A stretch of 64,000 nucleotides of DNA. It comes from Candidatus Undivivens industriae. Its GTDB lineage: Bacteria; Omnitrophota; Gorgyraeia; Gygaellales; Profunditerraquicolaceae. Below the pieces are notes generated by a model. It was not told where the DNA came from. It did no database searches and saw only the letters and a list, made by a program, of their open reading frames with translations. Every line of letters starts with the position of its first letter. The first letter of the stretch is position 1. The DNA is taken from the NCBI GenBank assembly GCA_012514745.1, contig JAAYZR010000009.1:10045-74044 (forward strand). Reading direction: 5' to 3'. A program made the position numbers and the translations under genes. Positions 8,726 through 26,416 of the stretch are shown here, piece after piece.

Positions 8726-9154
8726 ATGGATAAAAAGAGGGTTTTGTTCATTTGCGCGCATAATTCAGCCAGGTCTCAGATGGCCGAGGCTTTCCTGAAG
8801 AAATACGCGGGAGACCGTTTTGAAGTGGAAAGCGCGGGGCTTCAGCCAGGGGTGTTGAATCCGGCGGCGGTGGAGGTGATGAGAGAAGCAGGGATCGATA
8901 TCTCGCGGAACAAGACCAAAAGCGTTCTGGATCTGCATAAACAAGGCAGGCAGTACGATTATGTCATCACCGTCTGCGATGAATCGCAATCCGGGACATG
9001 CCCGGTTTTCCCCGGCGCGGGGGAGCGTCTTCATTGGGATTTTCCGGATCCCGCGCGCTTCGAGGGAACTTTCGAGGATAGGCTCGGGCAGACAAGGAAG
9101 GTTAGAGATGCAATCGAGTCCGGAATAAAGCAATGGCTGTTGGAACATCCTTGA
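8726..9154 (+). CDS. arsC: Arsenate reductase, low-molecular-weight phosphotyrosine phosphatase type (thioredoxin-coupled).
   Basis: CAHNSARS P-loop (CX5R) at the N-terminus plus the downstream Cys pair (CDESQSGTC). Confidence 0.7.
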
Positions 9155-9182
9155 TCCCATAGATACAGATAAGGAGCGGAGA

Positions 9183-9896
9183 ATGCGCGTGAAAGTGCTT
9201 TTTGACAAGACCGCGAGTAACAAAAAACTCCATACAGGCTGGGGAATTTCTTTCCTGGTGAGCGGCAGGATCATTTTCGACACCGGAGAGAAGGGCTCCT
9301 GGCTGGCGGAGAATATGAGAATGTTGAAGGTGGACCCGGGCAAGATCGAAGCGGCGGTGATCTCGCACGACCATTGGGACCATCAGGGAGGTTTGTGGGA
9401 ATTGCTTAGGCGCAGGAAAGGGCTGCCGGTTTACGCCTGCCCGAATTTCAGCCGGGAATTCAAAGAAAAGGTAAAAAAGCTGAGAGGGCATCTCATAGAG
9501 GCGAAAAAGAAGATGATGGTCGCGGAAGATATTTTCGTCACGGGAGAGGTTGCCGGAGAATACGACGGAAAATATATGCCGGAGCAGGCCATGGTCGTGC
9601 GGACGAAGAAGGGAATATCTGTTTTGACCGGCTGCGCGCATCCCGGCATAATCAGGATACTGCGCAGGGCAAAGAAGATTCTTCCGAAAGAAAAGATACA
9701 CGCCGTCCTGGGAGGTTTTCACCTTGTGAACCGGGATAAAGAAGATATAGAGAAAATAGCCGGTCAATTCAGAAAGTTGGGCGTCCAGAAAGCCGGGGCC
9801 GCGCATTGTTCCGGAGCCGCCGCGGAAATGATATTTAAAGCGTTTTTCAAGAATGACTTTATACGGGTCCAGGCCGGCACGGGAATAGAGGTTTAG
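9183..9896 (+). CDS. MBL-fold metallo-hydrolase.
   Basis: HDHWDH (HxHxDH) metal-binding motif and downstream His/Asp ligands. The overlapping 308-aa minus-strand ORF is treated as a shadow. Confidence 0.6.
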   Translation: MRVKVLFDKTASNKKLHTGWGISFLVSGRIIFDTGEKGSWLAENMRMLKVDPGKIEAAVISHDHWDHQGGLWELLRRRKGLPVYACPNFSREFKEKVKKLRGHLIEAKKKMMVAEDIFVTGEVAGEYDGKYMPEQAMVVRTKKGISVLTGCAHPGIIRILRRAKKILPKEKIHAVLGGFHLVNRDKEDIEKIAGQFRKLGVQKAGAAHCSGAAAEMIFKAFFKNDFIRVQAGTGIEV

Positions 9897-9990
9897 CGGC
9901 GTTACCGTGAAATCCCGGCGTTTACCTCGGCTTCCAGGGCGCCGGCCCCTGATGCCGACATGCGAGCCGGTCGCCGGCCGGAATATTTTC

Positions 9991-10019
9991 TTGAGATAGA
10001 ATATTCGCGGGTTTATAAT
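9991..10019 (+). promoter_or_regulatory. Sigma70-like promoter TTGAGA-17-TATAAT upstream of the sulfotransferase cassette.
   Basis: -35 TTGAGA at 9991-9996, 17-nt spacer, -10 TATAAT at 10014-10019; strong RBS GGGGGAG before the ATG at 10090. Confidence 0.5.
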
Positions 10020-10089
10020 AAATCTCATTATAAGGCATATACGCGGCTAAGGACAAAAGCGCAATTACTTTCGGGGGAGAAGTGATCGT

Positions 10090-10857
10090 ATGAACAAAGA
10101 TGAGATTCCCATTTTATTCATCGGCCAGTGCAAGAGCGGAAGCAACACGCTTTTCGAAAAGATCGCCGCCGTGGAGGGATTTGTTGGCGGGCAAGTGCGC
10201 AGGGCTTCTTACCGGGCAAGGCGGGAATTGGGAGATTATTATTCCAACTGGCCGGATGAGAAGATAAACGAAAAGACCAGATTTCTGCTCGATAAGACCA
10301 TGATCGCCCCGAGTATCTTCGATTACCGCATCGGCCGTTTCCCCGAGAAAAACAAGATGATATACCAGATCAGAGACCCCTACAAAACGCTCAAATCGCA
10401 GTTCCTTTTCGCCATCGCAGGGGAGACCTGCTGGCGGGTCGGCCGTGAAGTAAGGCCCATCAAGAAAGACCGCGAAAATTATTCTTTTGATGACGTCTGC
10501 GCTGTGATCGAATGGAACCTTGAAAAGGTCACGCATTACCAGAACATCAACTATATTTTGGAGAATCATATCTTCAAGAGAGAGAATATTCTGTTTACTA
10601 CTCTGGAAAATATGAGGACAGGGGAAGATTTGAAACGCGTCGAGAAGTTCCTGGAGATCAAATTCGCCGATTACGATTATCCGTTGACCCAGGAAGGTAT
10701 CGCGCGCTATGAAAAGCTTCAGGAATACGCGGACTGGGAGGGGGTTTTCGATTCCTTTTCAGAAAAAGTCAACTCCAGGTACGTGGTCAGGGAGGATTAC
10801 GAGAAATTATCTAAGATCGTGGGATTCGATCTTGTAAAGATGTACAACATAACTTGA
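10090..10857 (+). CDS. Sulfotransferase-family protein (PAPS-dependent).
   Basis: N-terminal PSB-like loop IGQCKSGSNTL (compare PKSGTTW) and a 3'-phosphate-binding-like RDPYKTLKS (compare RDPRD). Confidence 0.5.
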   Translation: MNKDEIPILFIGQCKSGSNTLFEKIAAVEGFVGGQVRRASYRARRELGDYYSNWPDEKINEKTRFLLDKTMIAPSIFDYRIGRFPEKNKMIYQIRDPYKTLKSQFLFAIAGETCWRVGREVRPIKKDRENYSFDDVCAVIEWNLEKVTHYQNINYILENHIFKRENILFTTLENMRTGEDLKRVEKFLEIKFADYDYPLTQEGIARYEKLQEYADWEGVFDSFSEKVNSRYVVREDYEKLSKIVGFDLVKMYNIT

Positions 10858-12035
10858 GAATGATCTATTTCGACCATAATTCAACGACCCCCGTTCATCC
10901 GAAAGCCCTGGAAGAGATGCTGCCGTTCTTGAAGGAAGAATGGGGAAATCCCTCCAGCCGGCATGAAATGGGATACCGCGCCAGGGACGCGGTTGAGACC
11001 GCGCGGGAAAGGGCCGCCCGCCTTATCAATGCCGATAAAAAACAGATTATATTCACCGGCAGCGGCACTGAAGCGAATAATCTTATCTTCAACAGCATTG
11101 TCCGGCAAAACCGGCCGGAAGAAGGGCAGATCATCATTTCGGCAGTGGAACATCCTTCGGTATTGGAAACCGCAGTCTATTTCGAGTCTCAAGGATATAA
11201 AATAACCAAAGTCGGGGTTGATAGGTCAGGAGTTATCCTGCTGGATGACCTGCGGCAGGCGCTGGAAGAGAAGACCGTTTTTATTTCGATTATGCACGCC
11301 AATAACGAAACCGGCAGCATTCAGCCGATCGCAGAAATCGCGCGCCTGGCGGAAAAACGCAATGTTTTCCTTCATACCGACGCCGTTCAGTCGGCCGGCA
11401 AGATTCCGCTGGACGTCTCAAGAATCAGGATCGGCGCACTGACCTTTTCCGCACATAAGATAAACGGTCCGAAAGGTGCGGGGGCGTTGTTTATCAGTGA
11501 CCCGTTGAAACTCACTCCGCAGATTTTCGGGGGAGGCCAGGAAAACGGCAAACGTTCCGGGACCGAAAACGTTGCCGGGATTGCCGGGTTCGGTAAAGCC
11601 GCGGAACTCGCGCGGGGGAATTTGGAAAAGTTCAAGCGGATAGAACGTTTGAGGGATCTGCTCGAAGACGGCATTGTTCGGCAGGTTGAGAATTGCCGGG
11701 TTAATGCGGCGGGCGCGGCGCGTATCCAGAATACCTCCAGCATTTCATTCTATTTTACGGAAGGTGACGCGCTTGCCGCCGCCTTGAACGAAGCCGGGCT
11801 GGCGGTTTCTACCGGCTCGGCGTGCTCCTCGAGAGAATTCAAGTATTCCCATGTTTTACCGGCAATGGGCCAGCCGGCTGAATATTACCAGGGCGCGATC
11901 AGGTTCTCGCTCGGATTGGAGAATACCGGGGAAGAGGTTGAGAGGGCGGTCGAGATAGTCAAGAAAACTGTCGGGCAGGTGAGGGCGGTATCGGCGTTAT
12001 ACTGGGATCTGGCTAACAAGCGGGAGAAAGGTTGA
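10854..12035 (+). CDS. Cysteine desulfurase (class V aminotransferase, NifS/IscS family).
   Basis: SAHKINGPKGAGALFI PLP-lysine region, and SGTENV / SSREFKYSHV characteristic segments. Confidence 0.85.
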   Translation: MRMIYFDHNSTTPVHPKALEEMLPFLKEEWGNPSSRHEMGYRARDAVETARERAARLINADKKQIIFTGSGTEANNLIFNSIVRQNRPEEGQIIISAVEHPSVLETAVYFESQGYKITKVGVDRSGVILLDDLRQALEEKTVFISIMHANNETGSIQPIAEIARLAEKRNVFLHTDAVQSAGKIPLDVSRIRIGALTFSAHKINGPKGAGALFISDPLKLTPQIFGGGQENGKRSGTENVAGIAGFGKAAELARGNLEKFKRIERLRDLLEDGIVRQVENCRVNAAGAARIQNTSSISFYFTEGDALAAALNEAGLAVSTGSACSSREFKYSHVLPAMGQPAEYYQGAIRFSLGLENTGEEVERAVEIVKKTVGQVRAVSALYWDLANKREKG

Positions 12036-12592
12036 AGATGTCCGATAGAAACGGGCTTGTCATTGTCTTTACCGGATTGTCGGGTTCCGGAAAAACCACC
12101 GTGGCGCAGGCTTTGAAAAAGGAGTTTGACCGGCTGGGCCGGTTATCGTTCGTTTTGGACGGAGATGAACTAAGGTGCTTTGCTCCCGAGATAGGATATT
12201 CGCGGGACGACCGGATAAAGAGCGCTAGGTTAAAGATGAGCTACGCCAAAATCCTTTATGAGGCGGGGGTTATCCCTATCTGCGCCTTTATCCTTGGTTT
12301 CCGGGAGCAACGGGAATACGCGCGTTCTCTTTTTGATGAAGCCCATTATCTTGAATGTTATTTAAGGTGCCCGGCGGAGGTCTGCGCGCGCAGGGACCCC
12401 AAGGGCATCTACCGGAAAGCCGCTTCCAAAGAAATAAATAACGTGGTGGGAATAGATCTGGAATATGAGGAGCCTGTCGATTCTTCGCTGGTGATTGATA
12501 CGGATAAAGTGTCCGCCGGGGAAGCGGCGGCAGTCATTATAAAGCATATCGAAGAGAAAAGGATGTTGGATCGCGGTCAAGGGAAGTTGTGA
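12032..12592 (+). CDS. cysC: Adenylylsulfate (APS) kinase.
   Basis: GLSGSGKTT P-loop and full APS-kinase architecture (~186 aa); start overlaps the upstream stop. Confidence 0.85.
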   Translation: MKMSDRNGLVIVFTGLSGSGKTTVAQALKKEFDRLGRLSFVLDGDELRCFAPEIGYSRDDRIKSARLKMSYAKILYEAGVIPICAFILGFREQREYARSLFDEAHYLECYLRCPAEVCARRDPKGIYRKAASKEINNVVGIDLEYEEPVDSSLVIDTDKVSAGEAAAVIIKHIEEKRMLDRGQGKL

Positions 12593-13146
12593 AGAAATAT
12601 AACAACGGGTTGATAGTCGGCAGGTTTCAGCCGTTTCATCTGGAGCATCTGCGTCTGGCGGTTGCTGCCGCCGGCAGGGTAAAGCATCTTTGGGTCGGCA
12701 TCACCCGTCCTTTCGGGAAATGTATCCCGGAGATCGGCGGAGCACGGGCCGTCGATGGCGCCAATCCGTTGCCTTACTGGCTGCGCTATCAATGCGTCGA
12801 GTGCGCGTTAATAAACGACGCCGGTTTTTCGCCAACTTCATTTTCCATCCTCCCGGTCCCTTTGGTAAAGGAGATCATCAAGCAGATCGTTCCCCGCGGC
12901 ACCGTTTTCCTGACCACCATAATGGAACAATGGGGGGTGGAGAAGGAGGAACTCTTCCGTAAATCCGGGTTAGAAACCATCAGAATGGATCTCGGCGCTA
13001 AAACCATCTCCGGAACCATGATCCGGGACAAGATCGCCGGCAGAGACCAGTCCTGGAAAGATTTCGTCCCAAAGCATATGCGCGAACGATACGCCTCCGT
13101 GATCGAAACCTACGTCCTTAATTCCGGGGACATAATACTTAATTAA
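12589..13146 (+). CDS. NadM-like (archaeal-type NMN adenylyltransferase family) HIGH-motif nucleotidyltransferase.
   Basis: GRFQPFHLEHL (compare NadM GRFQPFHKGHL). C-terminal ISGTMIRDKIAGRDQSWKDFVP resembles NadM YSGTEIRRRM...WEHLVP. Confidence 0.6.
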   Translation: MKKYNNGLIVGRFQPFHLEHLRLAVAAAGRVKHLWVGITRPFGKCIPEIGGARAVDGANPLPYWLRYQCVECALINDAGFSPTSFSILPVPLVKEIIKQIVPRGTVFLTTIMEQWGVEKEELFRKSGLETIRMDLGAKTISGTMIRDKIAGRDQSWKDFVPKHMRERYASVIETYVLNSGDIILN

Positions 13147-13166
13147 CGGGCAAAGCGCTCCAGCGC

Positions 13167-13856
13167 ATGATAAAAATAGCTTATAAAGATATCCTTTTAT
13201 TGATAAACGGGCTTTCTTCCGTGCAAGCGGGGGCGGCGTTGCGCACAAGAGACGTTTTGACCTTCAATTCTATCGCGGTTGTCGGCTCAAGCTGCGCCGG
13301 CAAGACGACCATGCTTCGTAGAATCAAAGGTTCTCCGCTCTCCCAAAGAGCCCAAATATCCATTCCTGTCAGATACACCACCAGGCCGGGAAGAATGAAC
13401 GACGCTTCCGGAGAGAATTTCCATCTTTCGCGGACCGCTTTTGCAAAAAAAATCAGGCGGGGGGAGATCGTTTTTTACTGGAGAAAACGGATGGACGCGC
13501 GTTCCGAGGAACTGTTCGGTTTCGGGCCGCCAGTTCCCGGCGTTATCCCGATATATTCAGGCAACAACGGCCTGCTTTTTAACCGCAAGACCGTCCATCC
13601 TAAAAGCGCCTTGAACACGACTTTATTTATCGGAATCTATGCCCCGGACGAGATAAGACGGAAACGTTTGCTTCGGCGGAGCCCGGATTTAGCCAGCAAT
13701 AAACCGGCTGAATTGAAATACCGCCTGGAAGACGGCGCGGAAAAGGTGTTGAGCCGGGTTCCTATAGTTATCAATAACCACGGCCCCTTTATGCGGCGCT
13801 CGGGGCAGGATGTGGTGAAATTGTTGACGAGGATTATCCGGGGACACAATACTTAA
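13167..13856 (+). CDS. P-loop kinase of the guanylate-kinase-like fold, PhnN-like (ribose 1,5-bisphosphate phosphokinase family).
   Basis: GSSCAGKTT P-loop. RYTTRPGRMNDASGENFHLS resembles PhnN RYITRDASAGSENHIALS. Confidence 0.5.
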   Translation: MIKIAYKDILLLINGLSSVQAGAALRTRDVLTFNSIAVVGSSCAGKTTMLRRIKGSPLSQRAQISIPVRYTTRPGRMNDASGENFHLSRTAFAKKIRRGEIVFYWRKRMDARSEELFGFGPPVPGVIPIYSGNNGLLFNRKTVHPKSALNTTLFIGIYAPDEIRRKRLLRRSPDLASNKPAELKYRLEDGAEKVLSRVPIVINNHGPFMRRSGQDVVKLLTRIIRGHNT

Positions 13857-13935
13857 TTATTGGCAGCCGGCCTCCGGTTGTCGGCAGAAGGCTTGTGGTG
13901 ATTGATACGGCCGTACTTTTCCATTCATAAATACA

Positions 13936-14259
13936 ATGCCGCGAAAATTTAAGCGCAAAGGCAGGTTCTGGGTTTATATTGTGCGGTGTAAGGACGGAAC
14001 GTATTACACCGGAAGCACGAGTAATTTAAAGCGCAGGATAGGCGAGCATAATGAAAGCAAGAAGGGAGCGAGGTATACCAGATATAAAAGGCCGGTAAAG
14101 TTGGTATGGCGGCTGGAGTACCGGCAGTTCAAATCTGCTTTTAAGCTCGAGATGAGAATCAAGAAATTAACGCGTTTGAAAAAAGAGATGCTGATCCGGG
14201 GGAGACGTCTGGACAGGGTATTGGCGGGGAAAAGAAGATGCGCAAAGAAGAGATGCTAA
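13936..14259 (+). CDS. GIY-YIG nuclease-domain protein (UPF0213-like).
   Basis: FWVYIVRCKDGTYYTGSTSNLKRRIGEHN is the GIY-YIG core. Confidence 0.7.
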   Translation: MPRKFKRKGRFWVYIVRCKDGTYYTGSTSNLKRRIGEHNESKKGARYTRYKRPVKLVWRLEYRQFKSAFKLEMRIKKLTRLKKEMLIRGRRLDRVLAGKRRCAKKRC

Positions 14260-14500
14260 GGGAAGTATTGAGGATATTATGACAGAACGCGAAAAAATGG
14301 CAGCCGGCGAGCCTTATAATGCCGGCGATCCAGAACTGGTTAGCTTGATTAAACCGCTCCTGTCCGGGATTACCCGGCCAGTTTTACATTCATCCTGGAA
14401 TACATTCAGCCAAGGCGGCCGGCGGCCAGAGGCGCGCTCAATAAGTATTGGGCGTTCGGGCCTCTTGTGGTAAAATAAAATAACTTACTTCAAAGAGCTT

Positions 14501-15313
14501 ATGATACGATCGATTCAGTGTTTACATCCTCTTTTTCAGGCGTTGATCGCGGGTATCTTCACGTGGGCTTTGACCGCGGTCGGCGCGTCGCTTGTTTTCG
14601 CGGCGAAGGAATTCAGCCAAAAGATATTCGATGCCATGCTGGGTTTTGCCGCCGGAATGATGCTCGCCGCAAGTTTCTGGTCGCTTTTAGCTCCCGCCAT
14701 CGAGATGTCGGCAAGCTGCGGAATGATCCCGTGGGTTCCCGCCGCCTTCGGCTTTCTGCTCGGGACAATTTTTCTGCGTCTAATCGATAAATCCTTACCG
14801 CATTTGCACCTTGGTTTTCCGAATAATGAGGCCGAAGGCGTGAAAACATCATGGCATCGCAGTGTTTTGCTTGTTCTGGCGATAACCCTTCACAATATTC
14901 CGGAAGGGCTCGCGGTGGGTGTTGCGATAGGAGCTGCCGCTTCTGGTCTGCCTGGCGCCTCCGGTACCGCCGCTATGGCTCTGGCGTTGGGGATCGGAAT
15001 CCAGAATATTCCCGAGGGTTTTGCCGTGTCGGTTTCTTTGCGCCGGGAGAGGATGTCAAGACTAAAGAGTTTTTGGTATGGCCAACTTTCAGCGATAGTC
15101 GAACCGGTTGCGGCTGTCCTGGGAGCGGCAGCTGTAATATGGGCTAAACCCTTATTGCCATATGCGCTGGGGTTCGCGGCAGGGGCGATGATCTTTGTCG
15201 TTGTCGAAGAGGTAATTCCGGAATCGCAGCGCAATGGCCATACGGATTTAGCTACGGCAGGAACTATCATCGGTTTCTTGGCTATGATGATACTGGATGT
15301 GGCTTTTAGCTGA
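14501..15313 (+). CDS. zupT: ZIP-family metal (zinc) transporter.
   Basis: HNIPEGLAVGVAIG and IQNIPEGFAVS ZIP signature helices; multiple TM segments. Confidence 0.85.
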   Translation: MIRSIQCLHPLFQALIAGIFTWALTAVGASLVFAAKEFSQKIFDAMLGFAAGMMLAASFWSLLAPAIEMSASCGMIPWVPAAFGFLLGTIFLRLIDKSLPHLHLGFPNNEAEGVKTSWHRSVLLVLAITLHNIPEGLAVGVAIGAAASGLPGASGTAAMALALGIGIQNIPEGFAVSVSLRRERMSRLKSFWYGQLSAIVEPVAAVLGAAAVIWAKPLLPYALGFAAGAMIFVVVEEVIPESQRNGHTDLATAGTIIGFLAMMILDVAFS

Positions 15314-15369
15314 TCAAGAAGCTGAAATAACCTGTTCGAGTGGAGCCCCGCGGGCTTAACAGCGGTGAG

Positions 15370-15402
15370 TACTTTCCCACAAGGGAACACTTGCCCAATT
15401 CC
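15370..15402. repeat. Left copy of a perfect 33-bp inverted repeat (partner at 22564-22596); imperfect similarity extends ~18 bp further right.
   Basis: TACTTTCCCACAAGGGAACACTTGCCCAATTCC is the exact reverse complement of 22564-22596. Confidence 0.9.
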
Positions 15403-15479
15403 GCTAAGGGCAATGTGCTATCCCGACCGGGTTAAAATCCGGGATTTCTGGGAGAGGGAATTAAAAAGGAGGAGATAAA

Positions 15480-15959
15480 ATGGGAACAAAAGGAAAAGCT
15501 ATTGTAGAAGTGGATGTTAAAAAACTGCTGGAGATGTTGAATAAGGCATACGCGGACGAATGGCTGGCCTATTATCAATACTGGGTAGGCTCCAAAGTCG
15601 CCTGCGGCAGGATGAGGGGGATCATTGCCGGTGAATTAGCCGAACACGCGGCGGAAGAATTAAAGCACGCCGAGATGCTGACGAAAAGGATCATCACCCT
15701 GGGAGGTACTCCTCTATTAACACCTGAAGATCTGCTGAAAGAGACCAATTGCGGTTACGACGCGCCAAGCGATCCCGATACCATAAAACTCCTGAAACAA
15801 AACATCAAGGGCGAGCAGTGTGCGATTGAGACCTATAAGAAGCTCTTGGATTTTGTGAAAGACAATGACCCGATAACTTATCGCATCATTCTTGAAATTC
15901 TTGAGGATGAGGTTGAACATGAAGAGGATCTGGAGTCTCTTCTTTCAGACATGAAATAA
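15480..15959 (+). CDS. Ferritin-like diiron domain protein (bacterioferritin/Dps-like superfamily).
   Basis: E...EExxH...E...EH pattern (ELAEHAAEELKHAE ... EDEVEHEED) typical of ferritin-like four-helix bundles. Confidence 0.65.
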   Translation: MGTKGKAIVEVDVKKLLEMLNKAYADEWLAYYQYWVGSKVACGRMRGIIAGELAEHAAEELKHAEMLTKRIITLGGTPLLTPEDLLKETNCGYDAPSDPDTIKLLKQNIKGEQCAIETYKKLLDFVKDNDPITYRIILEILEDEVEHEEDLESLLSDMK

Positions 15960-15983
15960 TAGTTAACGGTGAATTGCCTGGAA

Positions 15984-16015
15984 GGACCGTTTATCTATTC
16001 AAACGGCCTTTTTTG
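15984..16015 (+). terminator. Rho-independent terminator-like hairpin after the ferritin-like gene.
   Basis: GGACCGTTT-atctattc-AAACGGCCT followed by TTTTTT. Confidence 0.5.
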
Positions 16016-16136
16016 ATTGTTACAAAAGTTTCTGATAGTCGAGAGTCTAAGAGAAAAAATAAAGAGGTTCTCCTATGGATATAGCGAGAGATAATGTCCG
16101 GAGGACGGATGGGCAGGTTATTTAATCAAGATGCAA

Positions 16137-16300
16137 GAAACCCCGGCTTGGAAGTCGGGGTTTCTTGCGCCCATAGGATAGCTAAGTATTCGCTTGTGCG
16201 ATATACCTTAGCCAATTGGAAGGCCAAGTATTCGCTTGTGCGATATACCTTGGCCAATTGGAAGGCCAAGTATTCGCTTGTGCGATACCTTCATGGAAAG
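16137..16300. repeat. Perfect 9-bp-stem hairpin (16137-16164) followed by a 42-bp tandem direct repeat, ~2.7 copies (16185-16300).
   Basis: GAAACCCCG-loop-CGGGGTTTC. Unit AAGTATTCGCTTGTGCGATATACCTT(A/G)GCCAATTGGAAGGCC repeated at 16185, 16227 and 16269 (third copy partial). Shares the core ATACCTTAGCCAA with 22494 and 22597. Confidence 0.85.
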
Positions 16301-17212
16301 CAGAAAATCGGCATACTATATGTCGCCATAGGCGCGTTCATGATAAGTTTCTCGTCGGTATTCGTGAAACTTGCCCATGTCCAGCCGACGGTTATAGGTT
16401 TTTACAGAATGCTTTTCGGAGGTATCGTTCTTTTCGCCATAACAAAGTCAATGAGAGGCCGATTGTGGCAAGGCCGGCGGCATTTCGTTTTAGCGCTTTC
16501 CTGCGGGCTCATTTTTAGTCTGGACCTTATTTTATGGCACAGGAGTATTTTGTATATCGGCCCCGGGCTGGCCACACTTTTATCCAGCTTGCAGGTTTTT
16601 TTCCTCGCGGGCTTCAGTATCCTGATCTTGAAGGAAAAAATTACATTAAAGTCGGTATTTTCCGTTCTACTGGCCGTAGCAGGATTATTCATGATCTTCG
16701 GCATAGATTGGCACGTTTTGGATTCTCTGCATAAGCTCGGCATTTTCTTTGGATTGGTCACGGCCGCGTGTTATGCCGCTTATTTGCTTTTATTGCGCAG
16801 GATTGTTTCTAAAAAAGGGACGTTTTTAGTCAATAACCTGGCGACGCTTACTTTGATCACGATCACAAATATGTTCATAATGGGGATCGCGTCGGTTTTA
16901 TTCAAAGAAAGTTTTAGTATTCCCGATACTCAAAGCTGGTTGGCATTGCTAGGGTACGGTATTTTCCCGCAGGTTTTAGCCTGGATATTTATTTCAGCGG
17001 GACTTTCCCGGATATCTCCGCTGCACGCGGGTTTGATATTGATTTTACAACCGGTTCTGGCTTTTGTCTGGGACATCATATTTTTTGCCCGTTACACGCC
17101 GTTTCTGGAAATTCTCGGGGTTGTCGTATCGCTATCCGGGATATATGCCGGCACCGTCCAAAGCGGCGCGTATCATAAGAAAAATAGCGACGAAATGAGG
17201 GCGCAGATATGA
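16280..17212 (+). CDS. EamA/DMT-family transporter. The ATG at 16094 given in the ORF track just translates the tandem repeats; the real start is probably GTG 16280 or ATG 16340.
   Basis: Ten predicted TM helices in a two-EamA-domain arrangement. N-terminal KYSLVRYTLANW repeats are an artefact of the DNA tandem repeat. Confidence 0.7.
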   Translation: MRYLHGKQKIGILYVAIGAFMISFSSVFVKLAHVQPTVIGFYRMLFGGIVLFAITKSMRGRLWQGRRHFVLALSCGLIFSLDLILWHRSILYIGPGLATLLSSLQVFFLAGFSILILKEKITLKSVFSVLLAVAGLFMIFGIDWHVLDSLHKLGIFFGLVTAACYAAYLLLLRRIVSKKGTFLVNNLATLTLITITNMFIMGIASVLFKESFSIPDTQSWLALLGYGIFPQVLAWIFISAGLSRISPLHAGLILILQPVLAFVWDIIFFARYTPFLEILGVVVSLSGIYAGTVQSGAYHKKNSDEMRAQI

Positions 17213-17541
17213 GAAAGTCCAGTTTAGATAAAATGATACGGGGTTGGTTCATAGGTAATTTCCCCAGAGCGGTTTATAGGACTACGGAATTCGAGGTCGC
17301 CGTAAAAAGTGAAAAAGCGGGCGCCCGCGTAAATAAACACTTTCATAAAGTCGCCAGCGAGATAACCCTGGTGGTCAAAGGTATTATACTTTTTAATAAC
17401 AAAAGATTCGCTGAAGGAGATATAATCGTGATCGCTCCCGGCGAGGCGGTTGATTACAGAGTTGTCAAAGACGCGGTCACGGTTATTGTCAAGGTGCCTT
17501 CGGTACAAAAAGATAAATACTATACGGAGCGGGGAAAGTGA
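17209..17541 (+). CDS. Cupin-domain protein (possible sugar ketoisomerase-type cupin).
   Basis: Small beta-barrel pattern with the HFH motif ([17 protein letters not shown]...[11 protein letters not shown]); translationally coupled to flanking genes. Confidence 0.5.
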
Positions 17542-18584
17542 AAAAAAGAAAGAAGATATTTATTTTAGGGATAAACGGTTTTATAGGGAATATGATCGCT
17601 GAAAGACTTCTTAAGAAAGGGGATTATGAAGTTTCCGGGGTCGATTTACGTTCTTTCAATATCGGCCGCCTTCTTCCGTATAAAAACTTTCATTTTAAGC
17701 AGGGGGATATACGGACCCATCGACGCTGGGTCGAAAAAGAGATTGCGGCCAGCGATCAGATATTACCTCTTGCGGCGCTGGTTACGCCGATAGATTATGT
17801 GCGCAGGCCGCTTTCGGTCTTCGAGGTGGATTTTGAGGAGAATGTAAAGATAGTGCGATATTGTGCCAAGTATGGGAAACGGCTTATTTTTCCTTCAACG
17901 TCGGAAGTTTACGGGATGTGCTGGGATGAAGAATTTGACGAGAATAACTCTTCATTTGTGCTTGGCCCGACCAGGATGCAGCGTTGGATTTACTCATGCT
18001 GCAAACAGTTATTGGAAAGGGTCATTTGGGCTTATGGAAAACAAGAGAATTTGCAATTTACGCTTTTTCGGCCGTTCAATTGGATAGGCCCTCGTTTGGA
18101 CAGCCTGGAGTCCGCCAGAAAGAGAAGCTCGCGCGTAGTGACTCAACTTATTTTGAGCCTGGTGCAGGGAAGGCCCATTTTGCTGGTTGACGGCGGCAAA
18201 CAAAAGCGGTGTTTTACCGATGTATCTGACGGTATAGATTGTTTGTTCAGGATCATAGAGAATAAAAATAATGTCTGCGACGGCAAGATATTCAATATCG
18301 GCAATCCCGATAACGAATTTACCGTCAAGGAATTGGCGCGAATGCTTATGGAAAAATTCAAACGCCATCCTTTATACGGCAAATTCCCTAAAATCGCCGG
18401 TGTGAAAGATATTAAAGGCAGTTCTTTTTATGGGGAAGGTTATCAGGACGTTCTCCATCGAAAACCCCGCATTCATAACGCTCGAAAGCTTCTGGGATGG
18501 AGGCCTTCCGTGAAGCTGTCGGATTCTTTAAGCCGAACATTGGACTATTTTTTACGGCAGGCGGCCGAAAAAGGGCAAGGGTAA
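17538..18584 (+). CDS. NAD-dependent epimerase/dehydratase resembling the ArnA C-terminal UDP-glucuronate decarboxylase domain.
   Basis: [15 protein letters not shown] Rossmann motif, STSEVYG, and the YSCCK catalytic YxxxK. Confidence 0.75.
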
Positions 18585-18585
18585 G

Positions 18586-19737
18586 ATGAAGATAGACTTT
18601 TTTAAGCATAATATCGGGACTAAAGAAAAAAGAGACCTCTGCAAAGTATTAGACTCGATTTTTCTTACCACCGGGGACGCTGTCAGGGAGTTCGAAAAAA
18701 GGTTCTCCAAATATATTGACTGTAAATACACAATCGGGTTAATGAGCTGCACCTCGGCGCTGCATTTATCCATGCTCGCTTACGGGATCGGACCGGGCGA
18801 TGAGGTTATTACAACTCCTATGACTTTTGTCGCGACCGCCGCTTCCATAATGCATGCCGGGGCTAAACCGGTTTTCGTCGATGTTGAGCCTGCGACGGGG
18901 AATTTAAACGCGGATTTGATTGAGGAGGCCGTTACAAACAGGACTAAAGCCATTTTACCGGTCCATCTTTACGGAAATATGTGCGATATGAGGGAAATAA
19001 GACGTATCGCCAAGAAATATGGTCTTATCGTCATAGAAGACGCGGCGCATGCCATCGAAGCTCAAAGAGACGGATATAAGGCGGGTGAATTGGCAGATGC
19101 GGTATGTTTCAGTTTTTACGCGACCAAAAGTATTACCTGCGGAGAAGGCGGAGCAGTCTCGTTGAATGACAAAGAAAAATCCGGTTTAATAAGAAAACTC
19201 AGTTTGCACGGTCTAACCAGAGGGGCCGCCGATAGATACGTAGGTAAATATAGACATTGGGAAATGAATATGTTGGGCTGGAAATGTAATATGTCGAATA
19301 TACAGGCCTCGTTGCTATTGAATCAGCTCGCGAATATAGAAAAATACAGGGCAAAGAGAGAAAAGATCGCAAGAAGGTATGAAGAGGCTTTCTCGGATGT
19401 AAAAGGGATGAACTTTCCCAAGGTGCCGAAAAACAGCAAGAGCGGCCGGCATTTATTCACGATATGGGTGGATCCCAGGGAACGAGACGAGGCCCTGCAT
19501 TATCTTCAGACAAAAGGGATCGGCGCCGCCGTGAATTATCGGGCTATTCATACGCTGGATTATTTTAAAAAGGTATTGGGTTATCATATCGGAGATTTTC
19601 CGGTTGCGGAAATGATAGGCGATTCCACAATATCCCTGCCTCTATACCCGAAGTTAAGTGTTAAGGAAACGGATTATATTATAAAATCAGTCAGGCAAAT
19701 GAAGTTAAGTCATACGCGCTTCGGAATAACACCTTAA
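18586..19737 (+). CDS. DegT/DnrJ/EryC1-family PLP aminotransferase (ArnB-like UDP-4-keto-sugar aminotransferase).
   Basis: Family-wide architecture with the lysine region FSFYATKSITCGEGGAV. Confidence 0.8.
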   Translation: MKIDFFKHNIGTKEKRDLCKVLDSIFLTTGDAVREFEKRFSKYIDCKYTIGLMSCTSALHLSMLAYGIGPGDEVITTPMTFVATAASIMHAGAKPVFVDVEPATGNLNADLIEEAVTNRTKAILPVHLYGNMCDMREIRRIAKKYGLIVIEDAAHAIEAQRDGYKAGELADAVCFSFYATKSITCGEGGAVSLNDKEKSGLIRKLSLHGLTRGAADRYVGKYRHWEMNMLGWKCNMSNIQASLLLNQLANIEKYRAKREKIARRYEEAFSDVKGMNFPKVPKNSKSGRHLFTIWVDPRERDEALHYLQTKGIGAAVNYRAIHTLDYFKKVLGYHIGDFPVAEMIGDSTISLPLYPKLSVKETDYIIKSVRQMKLSHTRFGITP

Positions 19738-19819
19738 ATGCGAAGAACAACAAAAACCAACGTAATTTCGCCATATATTGTGCCCGGCAAGATCGCCGAG
19801 AGAGAAATGAGGAAGAAAA

Positions 19820-20653
19820 ATGAGCGAGGCCGATAGCATCAAAAGAATGAAACTCTATCGTCATCCCGAAAGAATCTATAATGACCTTCGTTCCGCAGGG
19901 CTTAAAGAGAGCGGCCTGTTAAAGGAAAGGGATGTGTCATGTTTTGATCAGTACCATTATTTCGGGACAGATGCGCTTGATGAAGCCATAGATCTGCTTA
20001 AGATAGACTCTAAAAAAAGAATCATAGAGATCGGCTCCGGGATAGGAGGCTGCGCGCGATATCTGGCGGAGAAGACCGGTTGTCATCTAACGGCTGTCGA
20101 GATCCAGCCGGACCTGGACGCAATAGCGTCTTATTTGTCCTCGCGCTGTTCCCTCTCAGGGTTTATCCGCCACGTGTGCGCGGATATCCTGGATTTTCGA
20201 AAGGAAGGAGACGGTTATGATATAGCTGTAAGCTGGCTTTCTTTTTTGCATATCCCGGATCGTCAAGCTCTTCTTAAGAAATGTTATTCGCTCCTGAAAC
20301 CCGGAGGGCAGATCTTTATTGAGGATTATTACAAGCGTAATAAATTTACGAAAGAAGAGGCCGATGTACTGCGCGAAGACGTTTATTGCCCTTACCTGCC
20401 GGCATCCGAAGAATATAAAGAACAGCTTGCCGGGAACGGTTTTACGGATATCGAGATGTCCGATAAAACAGAATGCTGGAAGAATTTTGTGAAAGAGCGT
20501 ATGCGGCAATTCGGTGAGAGCCGTGACCGGCAGGTAAAGGTGCACGGTATCGACACAGTAAATGATCTGGAGGATTTCTATAAAAAAGTATCCCGGCTCT
20601 TCGAAGGTAATAACCTTGGCGGATTAAGAATCTCAGCTAAAAAACAGCCGTAA
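19820..20653 (+). CDS. Class I SAM-dependent methyltransferase.
   Basis: IIEIGSGIGGCARYLA (motif I) and LLKPGGQIFIED (post-I/II). Confidence 0.7.
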   Translation: MSEADSIKRMKLYRHPERIYNDLRSAGLKESGLLKERDVSCFDQYHYFGTDALDEAIDLLKIDSKKRIIEIGSGIGGCARYLAEKTGCHLTAVEIQPDLDAIASYLSSRCSLSGFIRHVCADILDFRKEGDGYDIAVSWLSFLHIPDRQALLKKCYSLLKPGGQIFIEDYYKRNKFTKEEADVLREDVYCPYLPASEEYKEQLAGNGFTDIEMSDKTECWKNFVKERMRQFGESRDRQVKVHGIDTVNDLEDFYKKVSRLFEGNNLGGLRISAKKQP

Positions 20654-20742
20654 TTCCGGGGACACGTACTTATTTCACCTGTAACCTGTTTGTTTATCGC
20701 CCGGAGCCGATCGTCTGTTATGTAAGAAAAGGAGATATACGA

Positions 20743-21588
20743 ATGTTCCTTAAACGCGGTTTTACTCTAGGTTCACTGATTCTCGTTGTTATTCCGTTCT
20801 TCGTTTTCTCTCGTGTGCATGCGGAGAATACGCAAGGCATTGCTCAATCCGCCCTGGGGATAAGAGAACAACCCGAGATGAAAACGATCGGAATGATCGC
20901 AGGAGTAAGCTGGGTGTCGTCTATCGAATACTACCGTTTGATGAACGAAATAGCCGGGGCCAAGCTCGGCGGGCTTCATTCCGCAAAGATACTGATGTAT
21001 TCCGTTGAATTCGGTGATTTCTCAAAGCAGGAAAGGCTTGCAAAAGACGGGGACTGGGTTCCTTTAAGAAAAACGATGATAGACGCCGCGCAAAGACTTG
21101 AACGCGGCGGCGCGGATTTTATCATAATATGCTCCAATACGATGAACTCTACGGCAGATATCATCGAGCAGAACGTCAAAATACCGGTACTTAGTATCGT
21201 AGATGCCACCGGAGAGAAAGTGAAGTCCGCGGGAATAAAGACCGTCGCATTATTGGGCACCAGATACACTATGGAAGAGGATTTCTACGGCGGCCGCCTG
21301 GAAAAGAAATACGGGCTAAAAGTGGTGATTCCCAATAAAAGCGAGAGGGAATATATCAATAACGTTATTTTCGATGAATTATGCGCCGGTAAATTCTATA
21401 GCGAGTCAAAAAAGAGATATCTCAAGATCATTAACCGGCTCATAAAAGAAGAGGGCGTAGAGGGTGTGATATTGGGCTGCACCGAGATACCGTTGCTGAT
21501 TGAGCAGAAAGATGTCCGCGTGCCTGTTTTTGATACTACAGCCATACACTCCGAAGCGGCGGTGAATTTGGCGATAGGGGATAGATAA
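20743..21588 (+). CDS. Aspartate/glutamate racemase family protein. The start may be at 20878 (MKTIGMIAG); the upstream ~45 aa look like a signal/TM segment.
   Basis: Two catalytic Cys regions, CSNTMNS and ILGCTEIPLL, as in Asp/Glu/hydantoin racemases. Confidence 0.7.
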   Translation: MFLKRGFTLGSLILVVIPFFVFSRVHAENTQGIAQSALGIREQPEMKTIGMIAGVSWVSSIEYYRLMNEIAGAKLGGLHSAKILMYSVEFGDFSKQERLAKDGDWVPLRKTMIDAAQRLERGGADFIIICSNTMNSTADIIEQNVKIPVLSIVDATGEKVKSAGIKTVALLGTRYTMEEDFYGGRLEKKYGLKVVIPNKSEREYINNVIFDELCAGKFYSESKKRYLKIINRLIKEEGVEGVILGCTEIPLLIEQKDVRVPVFDTTAIHSEAAVNLAIGDR

Positions 21589-21658
21589 CGAGTGATGGGC
21601 GAGGCGCAGGGAAATCAGCTAAAAGGGCATGGGTTGGAGGCGATAGGGAGAACAGCCC

Positions 21659-22447
21659 GTGTTTCTACTCGATAAGGGGTTTACTATGAAACAATGGTAT
21701 GAAGCATTATTCGAGAACTACGCGCGCAAATACGATAAAGAATGTTTTGTCCAGGGGACTGTGGGTGAGTGCGATTTTATCGAGGCTGAGGCCGGACAAG
21801 ATAAATCCATAAAGATCATTGATATCGGATGTGGTACCGGTCGCCACGCCATTGAGTTGGCGAAAAGAGGATATAAAGTGAGCGGCGTCGACCTTTCCGA
21901 GTCACAGCTTGCAAGGGCGCGGGAGAAAGCCAAAGAAGCAGGGGTGGCGATCGATTTTAAGAAGCATGATGCGCGGGCCCTTCCGTTTGAGGGCGAATTC
22001 GATCTGGCCATTATGCTATGCGAAGGCGGGTTTCCTCTTATGGAAACGGATGAAATGAATTTCGCGATCCTCAAGAGCGCGGCAAGAGCTTTAAACGTCC
22101 AGGGGAAGCTCATTTTTACCACATTGAACGGATTGTTCCCGTTGTTTCATTCGGTCAGTGAATTTTATAAGTCGGCGCAGAAAGAAGGCCAGTCACAGTG
22201 CAAAGAGTGCTCCTTTGACCTGATGACCTTCCGTGATCATAACACCGTTGTTTTTGAGGACGATTCCGGCAATAAAAGGGAGTTTAAGTGCAACGAGCGT
22301 TATTACATACCCAGTGAAATAACGGGGCTTTTAAAAACGCTCGGGTTTAAGAAAATAGACATTTTCGGCGCGAAGCTCGGGGCGTATTCAAGAAACGAAA
22401 AATTGACTACCGATGATTTCGAAATGCTTGTAGTCGCGGAGAAGTAA
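21659..22447 (+). CDS. Class I SAM-dependent methyltransferase.
   Basis: IIDIGCGTGRHAIELAKRGYKVSGVDLS motif I/II. Confidence 0.7.
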   Translation: MFLLDKGFTMKQWYEALFENYARKYDKECFVQGTVGECDFIEAEAGQDKSIKIIDIGCGTGRHAIELAKRGYKVSGVDLSESQLARAREKAKEAGVAIDFKKHDARALPFEGEFDLAIMLCEGGFPLMETDEMNFAILKSAARALNVQGKLIFTTLNGLFPLFHSVSEFYKSAQKEGQSQCKECSFDLMTFRDHNTVVFEDDSGNKREFKCNERYYIPSEITGLLKTLGFKKIDIFGAKLGAYSRNEKLTTDDFEMLVVAEK

Positions 22448-22464
22448 GAATTTGATCTCTTCCC

Positions 22465-22483
22465 CCGGAAATCCCCGGGTTTT
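22465..22483 (+). terminator. Short GC hairpin plus T-run after the methyltransferase gene (weak terminator).
   Basis: CCCGG-aatcc-CCGGG followed by TTTT. Confidence 0.35.
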
Positions 22484-22493
22484 AGGCCGGGTG

Positions 22494-22609
22494 TACCTTA
22501 GCCAATCGGAGTAACACCCTGCCTTTGTGGGATAACACCTTGCCCTTATGGGGAATTGGGCAAGTGTTCCCTTGTGGGAAAGTATACATCGCTGTGTTAT
22601 ACCTTAGCC
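22494..22609. repeat. Cluster of short related repeats, including the right copy of the 33-bp inverted repeat (22564-22596).
   Basis: Three ~20-bp units (AACACCCTGCCTTTGTGGGA, AACACCTTGCCCTTATGGGG, CAAGTGTTCCCTTGTGGGAA) plus two copies of TACCTTAGCCAA at 22494-22507 and 22597-22609. Confidence 0.85.
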
Positions 22610-22627
22610 AAGTTGAATACTCATCAA

Positions 22628-22727
22628 GTTACCATACAATACTTGAAATTCTATCAATCGTATGGTAACTTTTTATTTGACATCAGTTACCATACAAGAT
22701 ATGCTATTTAGTAGTTTGTATGGTAAC
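22628..22727 (+). promoter_or_regulatory. Two palindromic operators (12-bp arms GTTACCATACAA / TTGTATGGTAAC, 18-bp spacers) with a sigma70-like promoter TTGACA-17-TATGCT embedded in the second.
   Basis: Arms at 22628-22639, 22658-22669 (one mismatch), 22686-22697 and 22716-22727. -35 at 22677-22682, -10 at 22700-22705. Confidence 0.6.
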
Positions 22728-22752
22728 TATTTAACCTTACGGAGAGTTTGAC

Positions 22753-23070
22753 ATGGGAGTGATAAAGGGAGTGCTTAAAGAAGAATTCGAGAATTCTCTG
22801 CGCATGAAGGGTGGATACGAGCGCGAATTGGCAAAATTGCCCAAAGGTAGCCTCATTAAAAAAAAGGTTAAAGGCCATGAGTATTATTATCTTCTATTGC
22901 GGCAGAAGGGAAAGGTAAAATTTATCTATAAGGGCAAGGTTTCCGAAGAAGAGATAAAGAAATATCAAGAAGCGAAAGAATACAGGGCTAAGTATCGAAA
23001 GCTATTATCTCAAGTGAAAAAACAAATCAGGTTTTTACGGAGCGCTCTTCGTGGAAAAGAATCAGTATAA
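22753..23070 (+). CDS. Small lysine-rich protein of unknown function; candidate regulator/antitoxin partner of the downstream nucleotidyltransferase.
   Basis: 105 aa, 25% K/R. AT-rich codon usage typical of the island. Its stop overlaps the next start by 20 nt. Confidence 0.5.
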   Translation: MGVIKGVLKEEFENSLRMKGGYERELAKLPKGSLIKKKVKGHEYYYLLLRQKGKVKFIYKGKVSEEEIKKYQEAKEYRAKYRKLLSQVKKQIRFLRSALRGKESV

Positions 23071-23737
23071 ATTGTGTCTTGAAGTATTGAAGAGATTAGA
23101 AGAATCCGGCATTCTCAGGGATGTCGTTCTTATAGGCAGTTGGTGTATTTCTTTTTACAAAGATTATTTTGGAAGCGTGCAGTATCCCACTGCAATCAAG
23201 ACCCGAGACGTCGACTTTTTAGTTCCGATACCATCGAAAGCGAAGAAAAAGGTAGATATTCCTAACCTGTTAAAAGATTTAGGATTTATTGTTAATTTTA
23301 AGGGATCAGAAGGATATATCCAGTTAGAACACTCAGATCTTATTATCGAGTTTTTGGTTCCTGAAAAGGGCCGCAGTTCAGATAAACCATACCAATTGCC
23401 ACAATTCGGCCTTAATGCCCAACCTCTGCGGTTTCTGGATTTGTTAATACTGGATATAATAAAGGTAAAGATAGAGGGTATTGAAATTAATCTTCCTCAT
23501 CCCGCTAATTTCGCCTTACATAAATTAATCATCTTTCAAAGGCGCACTAAAGAGGAGAAAGTAAGCAAGGACAGAAATGCTGCCGTAGAAATTCTTATGG
23601 CTTTGATAGCGAAGGGTGAGGCGGCGACCATCAAGCGTGTTTATAATACTATGATTCCGAGATGGCAGAAGAAAGTTATCAAAGGATTAGAAGAGGTAAA
23701 AGAAAAGGAGATTTTAAAAATTTTCATGGGAATATGA
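23051..23737 (+). CDS. Nucleotidyltransferase-fold protein (AbiEii/GSU2403-like minimal NTase).
   Basis: VLIGSWCISFY ... TRDVDFLV matches the hG[GS]...h[DE]hDh pattern of pol-beta-type NTases and AbiEii toxins. Confidence 0.5.
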   Translation: MEKNQYKLCLEVLKRLEESGILRDVVLIGSWCISFYKDYFGSVQYPTAIKTRDVDFLVPIPSKAKKKVDIPNLLKDLGFIVNFKGSEGYIQLEHSDLIIEFLVPEKGRSSDKPYQLPQFGLNAQPLRFLDLLILDIIKVKIEGIEINLPHPANFALHKLIIFQRRTKEEKVSKDRNAAVEILMALIAKGEAATIKRVYNTMIPRWQKKVIKGLEEVKEKEILKIFMGI

Positions 23738-23904
23738 TATATGTGAGCGGGCCGGAAGATAACGACGCGAATTAATTTTAAAGTAAGGCTGTTCAATACC
23801 GATGACAAATAAGAGCGATACACAAAAAAGAGTATTTTCACGACCTACGGCTGGCCGGTGGCAGAGTTATAGTAATGCCATGAGGAGCTTGGCTGAAGCG
23901 GTGG

Positions 23905-24711: not shown

Positions 24712-24862
24712 TAATCCGCCATCCCTATGATCGTATTGAGAAGCTCGGTCAGAGGGATTTTTTATGCGGCGATTTTTAGTATTCTGCGGGCACCCGGGAG
24801 GGTCAGAAAAAGGCTGGCCGGAAAGTCCGTGGTTTGGATTCCTTTAGCCAAAGCCACATTTT

Positions 24863-26414: not shown

Positions 26415-26416
26415 TA

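Follow-up and report, generated by a model that had tools for sequence, protein, structure and literature searches.

A cassette of five genes was analyzed in a stretch of 64,000 nucleotides (64 kb) of DNA from Candidatus Undivivens industriae, i.e., positions 10,045 to 74,044 of contig JAAYZR010000009.1, the whole of which is called the window hereafter. In this cassette, sulfation genes are joined to the genes of an uncharacterised pair, a kinase and a nucleotidyltransferase, that co-evolves with them. The following observations are new: (i) the families of the nucleotidyltransferase (g4), of the kinase (g5) and of the sulfotransferase (g1) are very rare; (ii) the genes g4 and g5 are constantly linked; (iii) they are found together with g1 and the gene of an adenylyl-sulfate (APS) kinase (g3) in three gene orders; (iv) in one type of locus (type D), g4-g5 are present without g1 and g3. 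The genes of the cassette are:

10090-10857, + strand: g1, divergent sulfotransferase-fold protein of the 3'-phosphoadenosine-5'-phosphosulfate (PAPS) type, 255 amino acids
10854-12035, + strand: g2, group-I (IscS/NifS/DndA-like) cysteine desulfurase, 393 amino acids
12032-12592, + strand: g3, APS kinase, 186 amino acids, with an alternative ATG at 12038
12589-13146, + strand: g4, NadM-fold HxxH nucleotidyltransferase of a rare family, 185 amino acids, GTG start
13167-13856, + strand: g5, P-loop kinase of PhnN/guanylate-kinase fold, from a rare family, 229 amino acids

Distribution and architectures of the module

The architectures were established from local searches with hidden Markov models in the fetched loci (numbered L001 onwards) and from the tables of called genes. 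The types of module are:

Type A (window, L001-6, L096-99, L116): g1-g2-g3-g4-g5, stand-alone operon
Type B (L008/9/100): g1-g3-g4-g5, then GT2, Wzy, GT4 and a WecA-like transferase
Type C (L015, L101/118, L119): g4-g5-g1-g3 inside a large cluster
Type D (L007/117, L010, L011/12/102, L120): g4-g5 and an overlapping EamA gene, in a cluster as in type C

The type C cluster is characterized by DUF6016, radical-SAM enzymes, a methyltransferase, an ArnT-like PMT_2 protein, a class-III aminotransferase, a secreted beta-propeller and an EamA transporter. More generally, genes of cell-envelope glycoconjugate biosynthesis are always found in the neighbourhoods of the relatives. In L116, whose g5 is 71% identical, g4 is intact, interrupted by a scaffold gap.

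In every locus g4 and g5 are adjacent, g5 being immediately downstream. The g1-g3 pair, where present, always abuts g4-g5. The original prediction, made from the sequence of the window alone, had described a PAPS-type pair next to a NadM-like and PhnN-like pair: both pairs are real and the four genes recur as a unit. Since this unit is found in three gene orders, the coupling is not accidental. Type D, which is present in four lineages, keeps g4-g5 while g1 and g3 are absent within 10 kb, thus sulfation looks like an optional add-on. Most likely g4-g5 supply something that the glycoconjugate pathway always needs.

The g4 family has 22 matches in 5.8 billion clustered proteins and the g5 family has 17 matches in the clustered protein collection. 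For the g1 family, a word-index search gave 2 matches, and an exhaustive HMMER search over 1.84 billion representatives gave 12. In the 90%-identity protein collection, g1 (255 amino acids) and g2 (393 amino acids) share one cluster, presumably as a result of gene calls that fuse the overlapping open reading frames (ORFs); this joint clustering may hide g1 from word-index searches.

The relatives of g1, g4 and g5 sit in metagenome genomes labelled Elusimicrobia or Omnitrophota. Proteins identical to those of the cassette (NLE91435-NLE91439) are labelled «MAG: Elusimicrobia bacterium» (MAG: metagenome-assembled genome), and a divergent copy is present in a «Candidatus Omnitrophota» MAG. Carriers of the module include this Elusimicrobia MAG, GCA_964488935.1 and the Omnitrophota MAG with MHB8155478.1. 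The metagenome scan with the g5 profile gave seven close loci, several of which were already in the set. The scan of species-representative genomes with the g4 profile gave, among the matches listed, ordinary NadM-type genes with at most 36% identity. In 80 genomes, still among the matches listed, g5, g3 or g1 was never found as neighbour of these distant NadM relatives.

Beside g4/g5, no NAD-salvage, phosphonate-catabolism or sulfur-assimilation gene was found in any module locus. The presence of g4- and g5-type genes next to NAD-salvage genes, which the original prediction had named, along with a canonical sat/cysDN elsewhere, as speaking against it, is thus seen in none of the relatives.

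Type D loci also contain ArnT-like PMT_2 proteins and a periplasmic lipoprotein of the alkaline-phosphatase superfamily (L007 14366-15781, with homologues in L011, L012 and L117). This «sulfatase» was considered, along with TauE, as a sulfur link and was discarded: TVPST is found instead of CxPxR, and both genes are absent in L120. Judging from its motif, the lipoprotein is probably a periplasmic phospho-transferase/hydrolase with a Thr nucleophile and not a formylglycine sulfatase. In L008, a Macro-NUDIX fusion (16289-17221), i.e., ADP-ribose-type ligand domains, is encoded five genes downstream of the type B module. This protein is possibly unrelated to the module; it would be of note if the product of g4/g5 were ADP-ribose-like. 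An anti-phage defence or a phage origin was rejected since PADLOC and PHROG gave no meaningful matches for g1, g4 and g5.

The sulfation pair

With Sulfotransfer_1 of Pfam, g1 scores 17.4 bits (E = 0.003), i.e., less than the gathering threshold of 22 bits. Within its family, P0102 and P0098 reach 31.6 and 22.0 bits, respectively, and the closest proteins outside the family are clear members (52-55 bits). A 5'-phosphosulfate-binding-type motif (FIGQCKxGxN) and a 3'-phosphate-binding-type motif (RDPYKTLKS, R(D/N)xYxxxKS in the family) are present in g1. K15 and G17 of the former and R95 and S103 of the latter are invariant in the 7 family members. Both motifs line up with their equivalents in the sulfotransferase 5x2b and in P0108/P0109, and 5x2b is also matched by the family profile in the PDB (1.3e-4). 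Motifs and transitive homology thus confirm, at the level of sequence, that g1 belongs to the sulfotransferase superfamily.

The product of g3 matches APS_kinase of Pfam (8e-41) and passes both TIGR00455 (159.8 bits, cutoff 138.7) and PRK05541 (142.5 bits, cutoff 127). The P-loop GLSGSGKTT and LDGDELR are both present. Its top match in the PDB is the APS kinase 7yq0 (4e-34), followed by 8a8h (Methanothermococcus); these are genuine APS kinases. Two subtypes are found in the module. The g3 proteins of the window and of L116 are of the PRK05541 subtype (139-142 bits vs. a cutoff of 127) and fail PRK03846, while those of types B and C are canonical CysC (PRK03846, E. coli-type, 218-223 bits vs. 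a cutoff of 163) and fail PRK05541. As both subtypes are ordinary, the generic APS-to-PAPS step is expected to be the activity needed, and a specialised 3'-kinase acting on a new nucleotide is spoken against. These features argue for genuine APS-to-PAPS synthesis by g3. By its motifs and family matches, the g1+g3 sulfation pair is most likely genuine.

Sulfation cassettes are known, e.g., the rhizobial NodP/NodQ/NodH and the associations of cysC with a sulfotransferase gene in polysaccharide loci. The module resembles the Nod-type cassettes in that it combines the genes of an APS kinase and of a PAPS-type sulfotransferase, in or near glycosyltransferase clusters, for the sulfation of a surface glycoconjugate. 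It differs from them as follows: (i) NodPQ bring a CysD/CysN sulfurylase, and none is seen in this module; (ii) it always comes with a NadM-fold nucleotidyltransferase and a PhnN-like kinase; (iii) its sulfotransferase belongs to a tiny divergent family, below the Pfam threshold.

A protein such as g3 may also have another use. In Campylobacter jejuni, Cj1415 is CysC-like. According to the review PMC6429109 (see also PMC12409886), the APS-kinase homologue of this species makes 3'-phospho-cytidine-5'-diphosphoramidate. The O-methyl phosphoramidate (MeOPN) pathway (Cj1415-Cj1418) resembles the module by the association of a kinase, a nucleotidyltransferase and an APS-kinase-family enzyme in a surface-glycan context. 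Thus, the presence of a CysC homologue next to a nucleotidyltransferase does not necessarily point to sulfate. By analogy, g5 and g4 would build a nucleoside diphosphate-X (NDP-X), g3 would phosphorylate its 3'-OH and g1 would transfer phospho-X to a glycan. The proposed chain would release a 3',5'-bisphosphate nucleotide, and its logic is that of the MeOPN pathway or of coenzyme A synthesis.

It is improbable that the module works in this manner. The C. jejuni enzyme is a precedent for an APS-kinase homologue that makes a 3'-phospho-nucleoside-diphospho-X donor (Taylor & Raushel 2018, as cited in that review). Moreover, phosphopantetheine adenylyltransferase (PPAT) ranks second among the structural matches of g4; the operon combines a kinase and a nucleotidyltransferase with a 3'-kinase-type enzyme and a transferase, methyltransferases being nearby in several loci; and g2 could provide sulfur for X in the window lineage. 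However, a specialised 3'-kinase would be expected to form one co-evolving lineage, whereas canonical CysC is found in types B and C and the other subtype in type A, and the best matches of g3 are biochemically genuine APS kinases. The MeOPN pathway also differs from the module by the folds of its kinase and nucleotidyltransferase, by a glutaminase-type hydrolase, not found here, and by its transferase, which is of sulfotransferase fold in the module. The Pfam families listed for the module loci suggest no homologue of the glutamine kinase, of the amidohydrolase or of the Cj1421/22-type transferase. Nor do the Pfam lists of the neighbours suggest any Cj1418-, Cj1417- or Cj1421-type protein (the domain lists were read and no direct homology search was made). 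The CysC-like member alone is thus shared between a MeOPN-type pathway and the module.

The nucleotidyltransferase and the kinase

In Pfam, g4 matches CTP_transf_like (1e-4), with weak NadM matches in addition. With its AlphaFold2 (AF2) model (pLDDT 92), Foldseek gives the archaeal nicotinamide mononucleotide adenylyltransferase (NMNAT) first (4yp7, TM 0.73-0.80) and PPAT second. The g4 profile matches 1f9a in the PDB over its full length (6e-16). The ATP motifs GRFQPFHxxH and ISGTxIR are intact, and on this basis g4 looks catalytically competent. P0018, a 230-amino-acid variant of g4 considered as a fusion, is a frameshifted or chimeric call.

The acceptor pocket was compared by aligning 64 NadM sequences, the two crystallised enzymes among them, with 17 close relatives of g4. 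D80, N84/H, W87 (M. thermautotrophicum numbering) and the Arg that precedes SGT are 86-100% conserved in NadM, and the corresponding columns contain gaps or other residues in all 17 g4 members. D80, N84 and W87 are assigned here to the pocket of nicotinamide mononucleotide (NMN), in line with the M. thermautotrophicum structures. The g4 family has its own invariants instead, i.e., T39, P41, G43, E48, G50 and R53 in a 10-residue insert, plus LPYWL61-65. From these pocket residues, it is very likely that g4 is not an NMN adenylyltransferase. The original prediction of a clearly NadM-like protein thus holds for the fold and the ATP motifs; it does not hold for the nicotinamide pocket, nor for the NadM model TIGR01527 (31 bits, cutoff 181). 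In summary, g4 shares with NadM/NadR its fold, GRFQPFHxxH, ISGTxxR, NPxxxxxR and, as in NadR, a P-loop kinase partner, while it differs by the lost pocket residues, the insert with its new invariants, the low score and the lack of NAD-salvage context.

The g5 kinase matches PhnN TIGR02322 with 8e-10 (38.6 bits, cutoff 156) and the guanylate-kinase model with 2e-6 (27 bits, cutoff 160). All 17 members of the family match PhnN TIGR02322 over the full length, and 15 of the 17 match guanylate kinase. With the AF2 model (pLDDT 89), the top Foldseek match is the closed guanylate kinase 9lo3 (1e-11, TM 0.6-0.7). The P-loop, the acceptor-phosphate motif RY(T/I)TRxxR and the LID arginines are kept, and g5 looks catalytically competent from these motifs. 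Two features distinguish g5 from PhnN and guanylate kinase, in addition to the lack of a phn operon: an N-terminal extension of about 35 amino acids, and the invariant motifs YSGNNGLL and W-K at the guanine-binding region of guanylate kinase (residues mapped by eye). The PhnN/guanylate-kinase likeness that had been noted for g5 is thus retained for the fold, the P-loop and the full-length PhnN alignment, and it stops well below the two family cutoffs.

Phosphonate metabolism was considered and discarded, as no phn (C-P lyase) or PepM gene is present in any module locus. Weak family-level matches were seen from the EamA protein to phn_DUF6 and from the B12 radical-SAM protein to P-methyltransferases.

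The cassette could also be a mere juxtaposition of unrelated housekeeping genes, in which g4/g5 would serve NAD or nucleotide salvage (NMNAT plus a kinase forming nucleoside monophosphates (NMP) or phosphoribosyl pyrophosphate), g2 Fe-S metabolism and g3 sulfur assimilation. The source annotations, which name g4 NMN adenylyltransferase and g5 PhnN, and the fold matches to NMNAT and guanylate kinase go in this direction. Against it: (i) g4 has no NMN-pocket residues, and g4 and g5 are far under the family cutoffs; (ii) the families are very rare (22, 17 and 12 matches in 1.8-5.8 billion proteins); (iii) the linkage is kept over three gene orders, in glycan clusters, with no NAD-salvage, phn or cys genes nearby; (iv) the distant NadM relatives of the 80 genomes, among the matches listed, are never beside g5, g3 or g1. 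NAD salvage was rejected on account of the lost pocket residues, the rare families and the absence of salvage neighbours. A housekeeping coincidence is very improbable and is considered essentially excluded.

The source of APS

The window was covered with Pfam, 47 ORFs being scanned directly and the remainder through precomputed matches on the identical contig. In these 64 kb, no ATP-sulfurylase, CysD, PAPS_reduct, CysN-type GTPase or sulfate permease was found. A six-frame scan found no Sat or CysD motif, either in the window or, within 10 kb of g4/g5, in any module locus; the real Sat of an unrelated locus (L044), which served as positive control, was detected. The absence of Sat/CysDN from the window, as the original prediction had it, is thus confirmed.

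To our knowledge, two types of sulfate-activating enzymes exist, Sat and CysDN. It had been suggested that g4 is a minimal sulfate adenylyltransferase. In such a case g4, perhaps with g5, would replace Sat/CysDN in a chain from sulfate to APS, PAPS and product. Several observations agree with this: (i) the four genes form a self-contained set that moves together, in three gene orders; (ii) no Sat/CysD motif is detected in the window or the module loci, with a positive control that worked; (iii) two APS-kinase subtypes are independently found beside g4/g5, as if co-expression of an APS kinase were required; (iv) the nucleoside part of the acceptor pocket is lost and a loop with an invariant Arg is gained, which fits a small oxyanion acceptor; (v) HxxH and ISGTxxR-type motifs are common to g4 and ATP sulfurylase, which belong to one superfamily. 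Moreover, PAPS synthase couples the sulfurylase physically to the APS kinase, and g3-g4 are translationally coupled here.

However, no similarity specific to Sat is detected. Sat is found neither in the PDB profile matches of g4 at E<=1 nor in its best 50 Foldseek matches. The hhalign probability between g4 and the real Sat of L044 is 2.4%, with only the shared ISGTxxR motif aligned. The Sat motifs QxRNPxHxxH and GRDHAG are absent from g4, which is half the size of Sat and has no PUA-like domain. From these comparisons, the resemblance of g4 to Sat appears to reach the superfamily level only. Type D is also awkward for a sulfate-activating g4, as its four lineages have g4-g5-EamA with neither APS kinase nor sulfotransferase within 10 kb. 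What a PhnN-like kinase would do in sulfate adenylylation is not obvious. Thermodynamically, this reaction is strongly disfavoured, and it has no pyrophosphatase or GTPase partner here. Lastly, Sat may simply sit elsewhere in the genome. The weight of these results is against this part of the original prediction, and a sulfate-adenylylating g4 is considered unlikely. It is equally doubtful that g4 and g5 form a third, new type of sulfate-activating enzyme, in which case the module would be a portable, self-sufficient sulfation unit for anaerobes devoid of Sat/CysDN.

Proposed pathway

The reading that is tentatively preferred, though it falls short of an even chance, is that of a sulfation pair accompanied by a kinase/nucleotidyltransferase pair whose role would be to activate a small phospho-compound destined for the same envelope glycoconjugate. 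The families, folds, motifs, linkage and genomic contexts are those observed above; the substrates, the order of the steps and the external source of APS are proposals. The steps would be as follows: (i) APS would be supplied by a sulfate-activating enzyme encoded elsewhere in the genome; (ii) g3 would convert APS to PAPS; (iii) g1 would move the sulfate from PAPS onto an acceptor; (iv) g5 would phosphorylate a small metabolite that is already anionic, i.e., phosphate-bearing; (v) g4 would join AMP or another NMP, from the corresponding nucleoside triphosphate, to the phosphate of that metabolite; (vi) the output of g4/g5 would be a nucleotide-activated unit for the same envelope glycoconjugate; (vii) the acceptor of g1 would be this unit, or else the glycan or lipid to which it is transferred. 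The last step would explain that the optional sulfation pair always adjoins g4-g5.

Some observations do not fit this pathway well: (i) the operon of the window lineage is stand-alone, without glycosyltransferase or other consumer of a nucleotide-activated unit, and in L008 the four core genes have moved jointly into an unrelated glycan cluster; such self-containment would be a better fit to four enzymes in one chain; (ii) no sulfate-activating enzyme is found in the 64 kb, nor within 10 kb of g4/g5 anywhere, and it makes sense to devote an APS kinase, but no sulfurylase, to the module only if the genome has Sat/CysDN; (iii) the conservation of g2 in type A, where translational packing ties it to g1 and g3 on either side, receives no explanation; (iv) the substrate of g4/g5 is entirely inferred. 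Functions outside the readings considered here account for the remaining probability.

The cysteine desulfurase

The g2 protein matches Aminotran_5 of Pfam (3e-76) and is NifS/IscS/DndA-like. It carries the pyridoxal-phosphate lysine motif SAHK and the catalytic cysteine loop GSACSS. Its scores are under all equivalog cutoffs, e.g., 448 bits vs. 530 for NifS TIGR03402. It matches the SspA and DndA models at about 1e-133. Nevertheless, no other protein of the cassette matches Dnd/Ssp models (DndCDE/SspBCD partners) and no PAPS_reduct-type DndC is present in the window; DNA phosphorothioation was thus rejected, and the strong matches of g2 are attributed to general IscS similarity. The cysteine desulfurase of the original prediction is well packed into the operon of the window, and it does not belong to the conserved core, since it is confined to type A (the window lineage) and absent from types B, C and D. 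It is a lineage-specific addition to the module.

Organization of the cassette

The ORF calling in the window gives five nearly gap-free ORFs on the + strand behind a TTGAGA-17-TATAAT element. The promoter-led cassette of the original prediction is thus found with all its ORFs in place, and the motifs quoted for it (GRFQPFHLEHL, ISGTMIRD..W.DFVP and RYTTRP..DASGENFHLS) are all present in the translations. From g1 to g4, consecutive genes overlap by 4 bp; use of the alternative ATGs at 10860 and 12038 gives gaps of 2-5 nt instead, and the former ATG yields g2 as a 391-amino-acid form, as in NCBI. The spacing between g4 and g5 is 20 nt. By all appearances the genes are co-transcribed. The upstream elements are:

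9967-9981, just 5' of the promoter: GC hairpin and T-run, terminator-like, at the end of the upstream MBL-fold (metallo-beta-lactamase) gene
9991-10019, + strand: sigma-70-like promoter TTGAGA-17-TATAAT, 11 of 12 consensus positions

This promoter is the top-scoring site within 8.5-15 kb. The scan found 10 sites for 5.6 +/- 2.1 expected, so that the consensus match is weak evidence by itself. The element is identical in L097 (g5 91% identical) and is not kept in L116; its status as a promoter is thus deduced from the consensus only. No Rfam element, and hence no leader riboswitch, was found in 9000-16500. The base composition is not unusual.

A motif of 23 nt, TCCGGGGACAYAATACTTAATTA, occurs with 0-1 mismatch at 13123-13145, 13837-13859 and 42664-42686 of the window, i.e., at the 3' ends of g4, g5 and a VanZ-like gene. 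Further copies are present in L003 (6118-6137) and L096 (5548-5567). The two copies of the cassette overlap the stop codons of g4 and g5, in differing reading frames, and flank g5 exactly, 714 nt apart. By chance, no copy of the motif would be expected. It may be the trace of a recombination or a short element dispersed at 3' ends.

Other features of the window

Directly 3' of the cassette, a 107-amino-acid GIY-YIG protein is followed by an ORF of 64 amino acids (13936-14473). The N-terminus of the latter, MTEREKMAAGEPYNAGDPELV, resembles the beginning of a maltose/galactoside O-acetyltransferase, and this ORF is probably a gene remnant.

The run 16094-22447 encodes an EamA protein, a 110-amino-acid protein, an epimerase-family protein, a DegT aminotransferase, a methyltransferase, an Asp/Glu racemase and a methyltransferase. 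The EamA, epimerase-family and DegT genes are located at 16.1-19.7 kb; together with the PMT_2 genes at 48.9-62.8 kb, they give the window itself an envelope-glycan context. From their sequences, we take the epimerase-family and DegT genes to resemble ArnA-C-terminal and ArnB, which would point to a pathway for an aminoarabinose-like sugar, 2 kb downstream of the cassette. A 42-nt unit, repeated 2.5 times (98% match) at 16184-16287 in the N-terminal region of the EamA ORF, encodes AKYSLVRYTLANWK three times. The true EamA start may be downstream of this repeat.

The array 48881-62778 contains six B12-binding radical-SAM genes, two interleaved ArnT-like PMT_2 membrane glycosyltransferases and, last, a DegT aminotransferase. 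Similar arrangements are seen in parts of the Omnitrophota type C/D clusters around g4-g5.

A low-GC island (36-47% GC vs. about 54%) is found at 22000-30000. It contains an NTP_transf_8/DUF6088 (AbiEii/AbiEi-like) toxin-antitoxin pair, Fic, a short transpeptidase-domain protein and a 646-amino-acid protein without family. This island is probably horizontally acquired.

Concluding remarks

The module associates an ordinary pair, APS kinase and sulfotransferase, with two orphan enzymes of nucleotide handling, which co-evolve with this pair and whose other occurrences are limited to envelope-glycan clusters. The current database names of these two enzymes, i.e., nicotinamide mononucleotide adenylyltransferase for g4 and PhnN for g5, are very likely wrong. 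In uncultured anaerobic phyla, little is known about sulfated glycoconjugates of the cell surface. If g4 and g5 activated sulfate, the module would represent a new route to APS. If the preferred reading is true, i.e., activation of a phospho-compound for an envelope glycoconjugate, it would provide a new nucleotide-activated building block, sulfated at the cell surface of Elusimicrobia/Omnitrophota-type bacteria.

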